From the IMG/VR virus record IMGVR_UViG_2565956620_000001, positions 1 through 31,985 of that record: 31,985 bases of DNA. The stretch is one strand, 5' to 3'. Position numbers and translations under genes: made by a program. This DNA comes from a virus. Its lineage: Duplodnaviria; Heunggongvirae; Uroviricota; Caudoviricetes. Position 1 is the stretch's first letter. The number at the start of each line of letters is the position of its first letter. Below, in pieces: positions 1 through 1,807 of the stretch. A model generated the notes under the pieces. It made no database searches. It was not told the origin of the DNA and worked only from the letters and a program-made list of their open reading frames with translations.

Positions 1-981
1 TTATAACGTCACTCCGCCTTTTAGTGGATTCAGAGCGACGGCGTTCTGCAGGTAGTCAGGCGCAAGGTGCGCATAGGTCATTGTCTGCTGAATGCTCGCA
101 TGCCCCAGAATCTGTTGCAGTGCAATTATGTTGCCCCCATTCATCATGAAATGGCTTGCGAATGTATGCCGCAGAATGTGGGTTGCCTGATTGGGAGGTA
201 TATCAGGTTTCACTCTGCGTAAAATCCCGCAAAACTTCTCATAATCTACCTTGAACAATTTGGCGCTGGCCTCCTCTTTAACTTTTTTCTCCAGTTCCTC
301 AGAAATCGGCACTGTTCGCTTTTTACCGTTTTTGGTTTTCAGGAAGGTAACCCTGCAACTTGTAATCTGTGCTGGTTTTAGCGTGGCAACTTCCGTCCAT
401 CTTCCTCCAGTGCTCAGACATAAAAGCGCGACAAGTAAGTCATCACCAGTCAAAACATTTAGCAGTTTTTCGATTTCTGCTTTTTCCAGGAACGTCATTT
501 CAGGGTTAGCCTCCGTCAGTGGCGGCAGTCCGTGAATTGGGTGTTGCCCGGAAAATTCATCCAATTGAATTAATTTTGTGAACATGCCGGATAATCGGTA
601 CATGTCGCGGTTTATCGTTGCAGCACTGATGCCATCACGTAGTCGCATGGAGCGATAATCCATCAAAGCCCTTTTGTTCATCCGACTCACTGGTATATCA
701 CCTATGCCGCTGATGGTTTTGAGCAGATGATTAAACTCTTTTGTCCCATGCTCGTGGTTTTGCCCGTGGTATTTCCACCAGATGTCGAGCAATTCTGTCA
801 AAGTTCGGCGGTCTGCTCGCTGGCCTCCCCATTCTTTCTGACTGGCATTGACGATTGTGTATCGCTCAAATGCTACCGCTTCAGCTTTTCTTTCAAATTT
901 CCTGCGGATGCGTTTTCCATCGCGACCGCGAGGCCTGATATCCACTTCATAACGTCCATCATCGAGCTTTCTGATACTCAT
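1..981 (-). CDS. int: Tyrosine integrase, P2 Int family (326 aa)
   Basis: ATG at 981..979 preceded by a G-rich RBS; stop codon at 1..3; the ORF-track N-terminal extension to 1191 has no RBS and overlaps the int-C spacer. Confidence 0.85.
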   Translation of the reverse strand: MSIRKLDDGRYEVDIRPRGRDGKRIRRKFERKAEAVAFERYTIVNASQKEWGGQRADRRTLTELLDIWWKYHGQNHEHGTKEFNHLLKTISGIGDIPVSRMNKRALMDYRSMRLRDGISAATINRDMYRLSGMFTKLIQLDEFSGQHPIHGLPPLTEANPEMTFLEKAEIEKLLNVLTGDDLLVALLCLSTGGRWTEVATLKPAQITSCRVTFLKTKNGKKRTVPISEELEKKVKEEASAKLFKVDYEKFCGILRRVKPDIPPNQATHILRHTFASHFMMNGGNIIALQQILGHASIQQTMTYAHLAPDYLQNAVALNPLKGGVTL

Positions 982-1093: not shown

Positions 1094-1387
1094 TTAGCCA
1101 GTTTTGCGGCCTGAGTGTGACGATGTTGTTTCTTCTGGCCCAGAGTGTGCGACGACCGGGGAAATCTGCCCGGATTCTGGCGCAATCTCATCTGTCATAA
1201 TCCATAATGTATATTTTTTAAACAGCGGTGTGTTGACTACTTGCTTTACGATTTGTAGTCCTGGCTCTTTATGTCCACCTTCATAATTTTTCAACGAACT
1301 AAGTGCTAATCCACTAAGCTCGCAAAATTTTTTTTGTGTTAATCCCTCGGCCTTGCGAATAGCGCGAAGTTTCTCCGATATTTTCAT
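1094..1387 (-). CDS. C: Immunity repressor C (97 aa, HTH)
   Basis: Position between int and cox; C-terminus ...APESGQISPVVAHSGPEETTSSHSGRKTG resembles P2 C as I recall it. Confidence 0.8.
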   Translation of the reverse strand: MKISEKLRAIRKAEGLTQKKFCELSGLALSSLKNYEGGHKEPGLQIVKQVVNTPLFKKYTLWIMTDEIAPESGQISPVVAHSGPEETTSSHSGRKTG

Positions 1388-1417
1388 TTGACATGGTTCC
1401 CCTATGGAGACTATATT
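1388..1417 (+). promoter_or_regulatory. Early promoter Pe candidate: TTGACA (1388..1393), 17-18 bp spacer, CTATAT/TATATT (1411..1417)
   Basis: Consensus -35 hexamer directly abutting the C start codon, with a good -10 at correct spacing, facing cox. Confidence 0.6.
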
Positions 1418-1422
1418 CCCCT
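1397..1422. promoter_or_regulatory. Direct repeats TTCCCCT (1397..1403 and 1416..1422) flanking the Pe -10; candidate C-repressor operator half-sites
   Basis: Two identical 7-mers 19 bp apart bracketing the -10; P2 C is known to bind direct repeats over Pe. Confidence 0.4.
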
Positions 1423-1534
1423 CAAAAGGTACTTGTTCGGAAACCTTTTGGGGCGTGAGTCCAGCCAGTCAGGAACGATCCTGAGCGGTTTTAAGAGGGC
1501 TGGACGGATAAGATTAGCACGAGAGGTGTGTTTT

Positions 1535-1807
1535 ATGGACGCAAACAACTATGTGGTTAAGTATCCGATTGATGCGGTACACCCTGACAAGTTTGCAGAA
1601 TTGCTCGGAAAACCGCGTACTGCGGTCGTTGAAATGATCAAAGCTAACAAGTTGCCGGTAGTTGAATTTCGCGATCCAACTAAGCCGAATGCTCGTGCAG
1701 GAGACAAACTGGTTTTCATTCCTGAGTTCAATCGTGGTGTGCGTGAGGCATTCTACAACCGACCGATAGAACAGCGGGACGCGTGGCTGCTGTGGATGGG
1801 GCTTTAA
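1535..1807 (+). CDS. cox: Cox-like excisionase / repressor of Pc (90 aa)
   Basis: ATG at 1535 with GAGAGG RBS; size and position match P2 Cox; the 1388..1534 part of the ORF-track ORF overlaps the promoter region. Confidence 0.75.
   Translation: MDANNYVVKYPIDAVHPDKFAELLGKPRTAVVEMIKANKLPVVEFRDPTKPNARAGDKLVFIPEFNRGVREAFYNRPIEQRDAWLLWMGL

Follow-up and report, generated by a model that had tools for sequence, protein, structure and literature searches.

The first part of the window (the whole stretch of DNA analysed, 31,985 nt) carries three genes arranged around a 147-nt intergenic spacer. An integrase gene (1..981, minus strand) was recognised from the Pfam Int_N and Phage_integrase families and from the RefSeq annotation of identical prophages. 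It lies downstream of the immunity repressor gene C (1094..1387, minus strand, start codon 1387..1385), on the same strand, as part of the lysogenic operon. C encodes a 97-residue protein that matches Pfam HTH_3 and phrog_147 (E=7.6e-39), and that aligns over residues 3-97 with the P2 C protein in the PDB (2XCJ/2L49; phmmer E=3.7e-27). It is 63% identical to WΦ C and 49% identical to P2 C. A homologue of P2 C of about 100 residues with an N-terminal helix-turn-helix (HTH), it is a repressor of the C type and not of the 186 CI type. The divergent first early gene, cox (1535..1807, plus strand), encodes a 90-residue member of the Cox family (Pfam Phage_Cox, E=1e-22; phrog_272, E=2.5e-44), whose product is both the repressor of the lysogenic promoter Pc and the excision directionality factor. 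An initial annotation had described this region as the immunity switch of a P2-type phage, and both the gene families and the homology to WΦ agree with that description. The interval 1385-1534 is thus probably the C/Cox transcriptional switch of a P2-family (Peduovirus-like) prophage of E. coli with a repressor specificity of its own. The region is textbook P2-family biology, a known kind of switch.

Relatives of the switch were reached only by protein-level and 'distant' searches, and a megablast of the region against phage records returned no match. Scanning the genome collection with C yielded one distant enterobacterial relative along with unrelated HTH proteins, and the C sequence as called had no exact match in the protein collection. 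The comparative set comprised about 90 related switches, with 32 HTH-distinct representatives and about 15 distinct operator arms, taken as independent classes.

The rightward early promoter, Pe, consists of a -35 TTGACA (1388..1393) and a -10 TATATT (1412..1417), both on the plus strand and separated by 18 nt. The two hexamers match the consensus at 11 of 12 positions, and Pe is the only match of the promoter scan between 1000 and 2400. Its -35 occupies the position of the annotated WΦ promoter, while its -10 is kept in nearly all relatives. CAT, the reverse of the C start codon, lies at 1385-1387 and directly adjoins the -35, so that the -35 of the rightward promoter is indeed contiguous with the start of the divergent repressor gene, as first proposed. 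The positions originally given for CAT, TTGACA and two copies of the heptamer TTCCCCT are correct to the base, as read directly from the sequence. This abutment is not special to this phage: essentially all of 56 distinct related spacers have it, as does the WΦ annotation. P2 has a -35 that overlaps the C start. By analogy with WΦ constructs, the Pe transcript would start at around 1421-1424 (PMC1904263).

The opposing promoter, Pc, had not been located in the initial annotation. Homology places it at the putative extended -10 TGCTAATCT (1519..1511, minus strand), which aligns with the annotated WΦ Pc. Of 30 distinct spacer tails, 27 contain the motif TGnTAnnnT, compared with 4.4% of shuffles, and it stands between 4 and 31 nt from the cox ATG, depending on the spacer. 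Because a search for a -35 in the spacers of relatives found no conserved hexamer, Pc is read as an extended -10 promoter. Its transcript would begin at about 1505 ± 3 and overlap that of Pe by roughly 80-85 nt; the convergent transcripts of WΦ overlap by 82 nt (PMC1904263).

The comparative set exposes two conserved structured elements in this overlap. Stem 1 is an inverted repeat (CCTCAAAAGGT / ACCTTTTGGGG, 1420..1453) that can fold in both RNAs. In an alignment of 31 sequences, 88.5% of its cells pair, 6 of the 11 pairs have changed on both sides, and none of 500 shuffles was as good. Wobble pairs (G-U versus A-C) gave no strand preference (14 versus 12). Stem 2 (GTCCAGCC / GGCTGGAC, 1459..1505) begins at the predicted Pc start and encloses TCAGGA (1469-1474)-ACGA-TCCTGA (1479-1484). 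Its arms covary across 30 distinct spacers, nearly all of which have 6 nt between the 3' arm and the Pc -10 (5 nt in the window). The switch papers covered here contain no mention of either stem. The stem 2 region is also a candidate Cox operator, given its homology to the Cox-binding region of WΦ. In that phage, the Cox site is a 12-nt direct repeat in the equivalent interval (PMC5009727), and the repeat, CCTAGAA(A/G)GGAC, can be seen in the WΦ alignment. Three phased boxes picked out by eye at positions homologous to the 12-nt Cox repeats of WΦ (GAACGAT 1473-1479, GAGCGGT 1483-1489 and GAGGGCT 1495-1501) were not retained as Cox sites, being too weak, with 6/12 matches between the outer two.

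The closest characterised counterpart is the switch of coliphage WΦ (P2-family immunity class III; GenBank AJ245959). The transcriptional switch of WΦ was reportedly described by Liu and Haggård-Ljungquist in 1999. The architecture of the two switches is likely to be the same, judging from gene order (int, C and a divergent cox, with the Pe -35 adjoining the C start) and from spacers of 147 nt in the window and 152 nt in WΦ that can be aligned end to end. The shared scaffold runs CAT-TTGACA ... TATATTCCC ... AAAAGGT-N12-ACCTTTT ... CTGGA ... TAnCAC. Operators, in the window proposed ones, occupy the same pair of positions on either side of the -10 in both switches (33 bp apart in the window, 34 bp in WΦ, about three helical turns), and a Pc, likewise predicted in the window, lies beside the cox start with a transcript overlap of about 80 nt (PMC1904263, PMC1904268). 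These features place the window switch in a WΦ-type subfamily. The differences concern mainly specificity: the recognition helix is LSSLKNYEGG in the window and LGTVKNYESG in WΦ, and the half-sites of the window, ATGGAGAC and TCGGAAAC, are imperfect copies of each other, whereas WΦ carries TTGGTGAC twice. In addition, the Pe spacer is 18 nt in the window but 17 nt in WΦ, the window lacks 7 nt in the stretch from the Pc -10 to the cox ATG, and the sequence of the Cox-site region differs. Membership of one immunity class has been taken to mean C proteins at least 95% identical and the same operator sequence (PMC3448106). With C 63% identical and ATGGAGAC in place of TTGGTGAC, the window does not belong to class III, and the phage is presumably heteroimmune to WΦ. 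On sequence grounds, its immunity class differs from those of P2 (I) and WΦ (III).

The C operator most likely consists of two 16-bp sites of the form GT-N12-AC, O1 and O2, which lie at the WΦ positions and would be bound by C dimers. The proposed O1 (GTTCCCCTATGGAGAC, 1396..1411, plus strand) is homologous to WΦ O1 (TATTGGTGAC; PMC1904263) and has a weak left arm, GTTCCCCT (1396-1403), and a strong right arm, ATGGAGAC (1404-1411). The proposed O2 (GTACTTGTTCGGAAAC, 1429..1444, plus strand), homologous to WΦ O2, is made up of the arms GTACTTGT and TCGGAAAC, the latter (1437-1444) being the better one, and its specific part is contained in the 12-nt loop of stem 1. In WΦ, the location of O1 and O2 on either side of the -10 is experimentally established (PMC1904268, PMC1904263), and its two copies of TATTGGTGAC, 34 bp apart, fall exactly on positions 1402-1411 and 1435-1444 of the window. 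Start to start, the two sites are 33 bp apart here, and the whole set of 32 representatives keeps within 32-34 bp. O2 is always embedded in the loop of the covarying stem.

Variation among the relatives points to the same sites. TGGAGAC, the last seven bases of ATGGAGAC, is the same in every relative whose recognition helix is ALSSLKNYEGGHK, while the two bases 5' of it are AT in the window, GT in relative C236 and TT in relative L030. The identity of residue 30 of C goes with that of base -4 in the O1 right arm in all but two of 32 cases: S accompanies A in 17, and G accompanies T in 13. At the WΦ register of O1 and O2, likeness among the 32 representatives was 4.81 within phages versus 3.19 of 10 between phages (0/20000 permutations), and for the best O2 arm against the O1 arm it was 6.41 versus 4.83 of 8 (0/20,000 permutations), although these tests count related sequences as independent. 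Repeating them on 15 classes, which is a partial cure only, gave 5.67 versus 3.98 for the O1 right arm against the O2 left arm, 5.13 versus 3.93 against the O2 right arm and 6.47 versus 4.60 for the best O2 arm (all p<=1e-4; none of 50,000 permutations reached the observed value for the best arm). The symmetry between the left and right arms of O1 is also class-specific, if weakly so (4.47 versus 3.69 of 8; p=0.02 with 15 classes). One further candidate C site, at 1534-1542 (TATGGACGC over the cox ATG, 7/9), was dismissed as chance, with about 0.5 such matches expected in the scanned region by our own estimate.

The window's own O2 is a poor copy of O1. Its arms match the O1 arm at 3/8 and 5/8 positions (6/9 when TATGGAGAC is set against TTCGGAAAC), and at the fixed WΦ register the two sites agree at 6/12 over a 12-nt window, a match at about chance level (1-3% per pre-specified position). 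The assignment of O2 therefore rests mainly on homology and on family-wide co-variation. In the relative L031, which has the recognition helix of the window, the resemblance is clearer, with an O2 arm of 7/8 and 10/12 matches between CCCAATGGAAAC at O2 and CCCTATGGAGAC at O1. The orientation of the good O2 arm varies as well: the WΦ, L050 and L080 classes have it in direct orientation, while it is inverted in P37/D53 and L046 (matches of up to 8/8) and in L033 (7/8). A tentative reading, which we put forward as a possibility, is that the 'direct-repeat' operators of the WΦ type are in fact pairs of 16-bp GT-N12-AC pseudo-palindromes, of which a symmetric C dimer reads one good arm each, and that a conserved 5' stem-loop is present on both transcripts. 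If true, the former would reconcile the symmetric crystal dimer of P2 C with non-palindromic operators. Likewise, conserved 5'-terminal stem-loops on both convergent transcripts may set RNA stability or the outcome of transcriptional interference.

Other placements of the operator have been considered, beginning with the heptamer TTCCCCT, which the initial annotation had taken as a pair of candidate operators flanking the -10. The two copies (1397..1403 and 1416..1422, plus strand) are exact and 19 bp apart start to start, as described, and form the only exact repeat of at least 7 nt in the spacer. They bracket just the first four -10 bases. Copy 1 is confined to the stretch between -35 and -10, where it belongs to the weak left arm of O1, and copy 2 starts on the final two -10 bases and continues downstream through a C-rich stretch before the predicted transcript start. 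The premise that P2-type repressors use direct repeats is sound, with pairs around Pe documented (PMC1904268, PMC2995052). The P2 half-sites, which are 22 bp apart, also occupy places resembling those of the heptamers: O1 of P2 follows directly on TTGACATGGT, with its start 4 nt past the -35, and O2 begins three bases beyond the -10. Moreover, copy 1 forms part of a site whose co-variation with the strong O1 arm is weak, and in P2 the C footprint extends over the DNA between the half-sites (PMC1904263). The O1 arm consensus of this class, GTyTCCmT, also happens to resemble copy 2 (ATTCCCCT; 4/8 to GTCTCCAT and 7/8 to the left arm), so C may contact copy 2. Against this, an arrangement of the P2 type would call for identical direct repeats about two helical turns (22 bp) apart that phages of one immunity keep, whereas the TTCCCCT pair is broken in phages with an identical C (copy 2 TTTCCCT or TTTTCCT), in phages with the same C HTH and recognition-helix region (copy 1 TTCCCTT) and in relatives with the same recognition helix (copy 2 TTTGCCT). 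Class-specific co-variation is absent: the positions of copies 1 and 2 agree at 3.16 of 7 within a phage versus 3.11 across phages (32 HTH-distinct switches; permutation p=0.40), the 15 independent classes give p=0.81, and copy 2 shows none with the O1 arm (1.88 versus 1.87 of 8; p=0.53). A spacing of 19 bp would set the copies on nearly opposite faces of the helix and matches no characterised class (22, 26 and 34 bp; PMC1904268), and the spacer is homologous to that of WΦ, not to that of P2. The repeat is also statistically unremarkable, because exact direct 7-mer repeats arise in 35% of dinucleotide-preserving shuffles of the spacer when counted anywhere, in 18% at spacings of up to 40 nt and in 5% within the first 60 nt. 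Copy 2 (column consensus TTC(C/A)CC(C/T) in 32 classes) belongs to a family-wide block after the -10, TATATTC(C/A)CC, that also occurs in heteroimmune phages; WΦ is one of them, and its known operators are at other positions. At copy 1, the family-wide TTCC (T 28/32, T 21, C 22 and C 25) reads GGAA on the other strand, a Shine-Dalgarno-like element ahead of the C start; in the window, the minus strand reads AGGGGAA, which could act as a ribosome-binding element some 10-11 nt upstream of the C AUG. Copy 1 probably lies under the repressor as a weak inverted arm of the 16-bp O1, and not as a direct-repeat partner of copy 2. A P2-like pair of C half-sites at the heptamers is hence improbable, and the pair is better explained, in our judgement, as a perfect match that arose by accident between two scaffold elements rich in pyrimidines.

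A single operator would also account for part of these observations, with C repressing Pe through one symmetric dimer on O1 alone (GTTCCCCTATGGAGAC) and O2 being a decayed remnant. O1 by itself overlaps the whole -35/-10 spacer, the O2 arms of the window are the poor copies described above, WΦ C is able to bind one half-site in vitro (PMC1904263), and P2 C is a symmetric dimer resembling palindrome binders (PMC2995052). In vivo, however, repression requires both half-sites in WΦ, P2 and P2 Hy dis (PMC1904268, PMC1904263). In addition, O2 arms co-vary strongly with O1 across classes, GGA-AC at O2 is kept in all same-helix relatives except L030 (GGGCAC), and a C->T variant at 1438 brings O2 nearer to O1, all of which makes the loss of O2 function unlikely. 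As for stem 1 (CCTCAAAAGGT/ACCTTTTGGGG, 1420-1453), it is the strongest symmetric element beside the promoter and is conserved, and might be taken for the operator by comparison with classical dimeric HTH repressors. Its sequence is nevertheless common to heteroimmune classes (WΦ, P37, SW3 and others) and is therefore unable to confer immunity specificity, and its variation consists of compensatory changes, a signature of structure and not of a protein recognition sequence. The centres of its arms, about 23 bp apart, are too distant for one small dimer, and 6- and 10-nt deletions in WΦ (GTTGTG and AAAAGGTTGT), which remove part or nearly all of the 5' arm, leave repression unaffected (PMC1904263). 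Given the sharing among heteroimmune phages and the compensatory variation, stem 1 was discarded as an operator, a role we regard as very improbable.

With C acting at O1 and O2, the switch could work as follows. Pe (TTGACA-18-TATATT, near-consensus) would fire rightward into cox, and the weak Pc, with its extended -10, leftward into C and int, producing convergent transcripts. In the lysogen, dimers of the 97-residue C would bind O1, which fills the -35/-10 spacer, and O2, just downstream of the Pe transcript start and three helical turns away. Bound at both, C would occlude Pe and in this way free Pc from transcriptional interference. Once the phage has infected a cell or been derepressed, Cox expressed from Pe may bind the region between Pc and O2 (~1459-1505) and shut Pc.

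Two other characterised switches can be compared with that of the window. P2 (class I; NC_001895) shares the C, Cox and Int families and TTGACATGG at the C start, as well as two features predicted for the window, namely convergent Pe and Pc promoters and a repressor with two short repeats flanking the -10 (PMC2995052). Its C is only 49% identical, however, and its 114-nt spacer is without the WΦ-type scaffold or the two conserved stems. The P2 half-sites (GTTTAGAT twice) are 22 bp apart, its transcripts overlap by only about 35 nt, and its Cox boxes, TTAAA(G/C)NC(A/C) (PMC3936717), are not evident in the window. P2 Hy dis (class II) has a small C acting on two direct repeats, one of which is naturally imperfect (PMC1904268), like the O2 proposed here. 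By contrast, its half-sites flank the -35 and not the -10, are 26 bp apart, and are read by a C that is nearer to P2 C than to the window C.

The main value of these results is a correct annotation of the region, giving the places of Pe, Pc and the likely C and Cox sites in a prophage that represents an immunity specificity distinct from those of P2 and WΦ. The comparative set (~90 switches, 32 HTH regions and ~15 arms) also constitutes a natural specificity table, in which recognition helices are set against operator arms and which bears on how this repressor family reads non-palindromic DNA. The switch itself is present in 46 of 5426 complete E. coli genomes. Near-identical copies of the prophage are found in 43 hosts, and strain BEN2908 is an example of a lysogen. 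UTI89 is absent from these 46, and the prophage is thus not the class IX prophage of that strain. Carriers make up about 1% of complete E. coli genomes, and many of them are poultry and clinical isolates.

The window is a P2-family prophage, since P2-type early genes extend rightward from the switch, beyond cox, including a 778-aa ORF at the P2 gpA position that is assumed from its size and position to be that replication gene. The left edge of the window falls within an integrase gene (1-981, minus). The switch itself comprises a gene for a 97-aa helix-turn-helix (HTH) protein (1094-1387, minus), the C immunity repressor, a 147-nt spacer between 1387 and 1535, and a 90-aa Cox-family gene (1535-1807, plus). 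Searches with the HTH protein hit the P2 C repressor structure (2XCJ/2L49, E=3.7e-27) and phrog_147; the protein is 63% identical to the C protein of coliphage WΦ and 49% to that of P2. The 1.1-kb switch region was found in 46 of 5426 complete E. coli genomes, chromosomal and single-copy in every case, with identity of at least 99% in 43 genomes and about 91% in three; a DNA-level search of deposited phage genomes with this region gave no match.

Direct reading of the sequence bears out all coordinates of the initial annotation. CAT, the reverse of the C start ATG, lies at 1385-1387 and is followed by TTGACA (1388-1393), the -35 of the rightward early promoter Pe, an 18-nt spacer and the -10 TATATT (1412-1417). 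Pe matches the consensus at 11 of 12 positions and was the sole match of a promoter scan within 1000-2400. The proposed adjacency of TTGACA and the C start codon is also confirmed, and is a family trait: it is present in essentially all of 56 distinct related spacers and is annotated in WΦ, whereas in P2 the Pe -35 overlaps the first C codons. In Yersinia phage P37 (L014, MT239398), the C gene as deposited begins 45 nt ahead of the conserved ATG (556 versus 601 in the locus), which is probably a mis-call because Pe -35, the first proposed operator and the -10 would then be coding.

The initial annotation also proposed two TTCCCCT heptamers, at 1397-1403 (copy 1) and 1416-1422 (copy 2), as C operators flanking the -10. 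Their positions are correct, but copy 2 overlaps the final two -10 bases, and their role as an operator pair is not borne out, given their variation among prophages with the same C and their lack of co-variation within phages. For example, where C is identical, copy 2 reads TTTCCCT (strain 463 group) or TTTTCCT (OkiPb01697), and it is TTTGCCT in IMG/VR relatives with a C of 84-91% identity and the recognition helix of the window, ALSSLKNYEGGHK. Copy 1 is TTCCCTT in the 91% relatives, where C is 96% identical and the HTH region unchanged. Across phages, the two positions resembled each other as much between phages as within one (own 3.16 versus cross 3.11 of 7; p=0.40 with 32 representatives, p=0.81 with 15 classes). 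Such a repeat is also not rare: when the spacer was shuffled by dinucleotides, 35% of the shuffles contained an exact direct repeat of 7 nt, 18% did so with a spacing of at most 40 nt, and 5% did so within the first 60 nt.

The likeness of the copies in any one phage is explained by pyrimidine consensus sequences shared across the family: TTCC for copy 1 and TTC(C/A)CC for copy 2. The complement of copy 1, GGAA/GGGGAA, lies about 10-11 nt ahead of the C AUG and would be the only possible place for the C ribosome-binding site, because the Pe -35 fills the six bases beside the start codon. The pair is thus best explained as a coincidence of two scaffold elements. Copy 1 forms bases 2-8 of the left arm of a different proposed site, and probably does lie under the repressor for a reason other than its repetition in copy 2.

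WΦ carries the characterised homologue of this switch. The GenBank annotation of WΦ (AJ245959) places Pe beside the C start and Pc, the leftward promoter into C, beside the cox start. WΦ C is known to act on a pair of 10-bp direct repeats that lie on either side of the -10 with a spacing of 34 bp; the repeats used by P2 C and P2 Hy dis C are each 8 bp long, spaced by 22 bp in P2 and, in P2 Hy dis, by 26 bp with the -35 between them (PMC1904268, PMC1904263, PMC2995052). In the WΦ spacer, the repeat TATTGGTGAC occurs twice. The window spacer can be aligned with that of WΦ along its full length through the shared blocks CAT-TTGACA, TATATTCCC, CAAAAGGT, ACCTTTTG, CTGGA and TA(A/G)CACGA. What separates these blocks is not shared and coincides exactly with the WΦ operators, whose counterparts in the window are CTATGGAGAC (1402-1411) and GTTCGGAAAC (1435-1444). 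The region represents another immunity specificity of a switch that is already well studied, and may equal one of classes IV-X, which are published but uncharacterised (PMC3448106).

Both variable blocks are bounded by GT and AC in every class, giving two 16-bp sites of the form GT-N12-AC: O1 at 1396-1411, between -35 and -10, and O2 at 1429-1444, from the end of AAAAGGT to the start of ACCTTTT. Their starts are 32-34 bp apart. In O1, TGGAGAC just upstream of the -10 is invariant among same-C, 91% and same-recognition-helix relatives, preceded by AT in most, by GT in C236 and by TT in L030. At O2, GGA-AC is retained (CGGAAAC, TGGAAAC, CGGATAC, ATGGAAAC, GGGAAAC) in all but L030, where the block reads CGGGCAC. 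In locus L031, the two blocks, CCCTATGGAGAC and CCCAATGGAAAC, match at 10 of 12 positions.

Co-variation was assessed in 80 IMG/VR loci fetched by C-protein alignment, plus E. coli and phage loci, cut to 32 representatives with distinct HTH regions and 15 with distinct O1 arms, by comparing the similarity of two positions within a phage (own) and between phages (cross). In the WΦ O1/O2 register, own similarity was 4.81 versus 3.19 of 10, a difference reached in 0 of 20000 permutations. Arms were then scored out of 8 against the reverse complement of the O1 right arm (GTCTCCAT in the window). Own and cross scores were 5.62 and 4.29 for the O2 left arm, 5.09 and 3.95 for the O2 right arm and 6.41 and 4.83 for the better O2 arm, and this co-variation persists with 15 classes (p<=1e-4). 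The O1 left arm scored 4.47 and 3.69, marginal with 15 classes (p=0.02), and the 8 bases over copy 2 scored 1.88 and 1.87 (p=0.53).

The good O2 arm is direct (8/8) in the WΦ (L074), L050/L057 and L080 classes; it is inverted in the P37/D53 class (L042/L043) and L046 (both 8/8), in L033 (7/8) and also in L047, so P2-family C operators may not follow the 'direct repeat' rule in every case. This pattern fits a proposal from the P2 C crystal structure, in which a symmetric dimer recognises one repeat specifically and the DNA beside it loosely (PMC2995052). A candidate amino-acid/base contact joins C residue 30 (about 1298-1300, minus) to base 1408, the fourth from the end (base -4) of the O1 right arm: 30 of the 32 representatives combine either Ser with A or Gly with T. 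In the window, the O1 left arm matches the reference at 5/8 and the O2 arms at 3/8 and 5/8, so O2 is weak in this phage. Mainly because of this degeneracy, the predicted assignment of the operators to O1 and O2 is considered likely rather than secure. A further sequence over the cox start codon, TATGGACGC (1534-1542), matches the strong O1 arm at 7/9 and is probably meaningless, as an estimated ~0.5 chance matches are expected across the region scanned.

On the C-sense strand, TGCTAATCT at 1519..1511 corresponds in the alignment to the -10 portion of Pc as annotated in WΦ. The motif TGnTAnnnT occurs in 27 of 30 distinct spacer tails, versus 4.4% of shuffled tails. Its distance is fixed to the CTGGA block and varies from 4 to 31 nt to the cox ATG; Pc is therefore read, from sequence, as a promoter of the extended -10 type, with no fixed -35; in the window the -35 position would be TCCATA (1539..1534), over the cox start. 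By homology, Pc would start at about 1505. Given a Pe start near 1421-1424, the predicted transcripts would overlap by 80-85 nt; the WΦ overlap is 82 nt (PMC1904263).

Confidence in the switch architecture is high. The analysis shows the gene families, a near-consensus Pe abutting C, homology to the WΦ switch, class-specific co-variation at two sites and a conserved Pc extended -10. In the proposed mechanism, C dimers would occupy O1 and O2 from the same face, at a distance of three helical turns, and would thereby occlude Pe. Silencing of Pe would free the weak Pc from convergent interference and maintain C and Int, while Cox made from Pe would repress Pc.

Two conserved inverted repeats each lie at the predicted 5' end of one convergent transcript and fold in either RNA. 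Stem 1 (1420-1430/1443-1453; CCTCAAAAGGT/ACCTTTTGGGG) lies directly past the Pe -10, with O2 in its 12-nt loop. Across 31 sequences, 88.5% of cells pair and both sides have changed in 6 of 11 pairs, which 0 of 500 shuffles reach; wobble counts showed no strand preference and do not discriminate between the RNA of either strand and the DNA itself as the molecule that forms the stem. Stem 2 (1459-1466/1498-1505; GTCCAGCC/GGCTGGAC) contains a perfect TCAGGA-ACGA-TCCTGA, and its outer arms covary among classes (CCAGCC/GGCTGG, CCAGTCCC/GGGACTGG, CCAACC/GGTTGG). Between its 3' arm and the Pc -10 there are 5 nt in the window, against 6 nt in nearly all of 30 distinct spacers, and stem 2 would be the very 5' end of the predicted C mRNA. 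WΦ Cox recognises a 12-nt direct repeat in the corresponding region (PMC5009727), making this a candidate Cox operator; no Cox boxes could be convincingly defined there in the window. Only the two covarying stems and the model of 16-bp sites, of which no description was found in the switch papers examined, are of some wider interest.

The spacer halves, one with C and its operators and one with Pc and the Cox region, seem to reassort (L022-L101). For instance, L099 joins a WΦ-like O1 to a right half that belongs to a different class, and the right half GAGTCCAGC...TCAGGA...TCCTGA recurs in several C classes together with a PDKFAELLGKPRTAV-type Cox. Past cox, the window carries two small ORFs of unknown function, phrog_12968 on the early strand (1862-2050, plus) and phrog_14615 on the opposite strand (2054-2233, minus). 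The 91% relatives have another gene there, for a 56-aa hypothetical protein, which suggests a variable cargo slot after cox.
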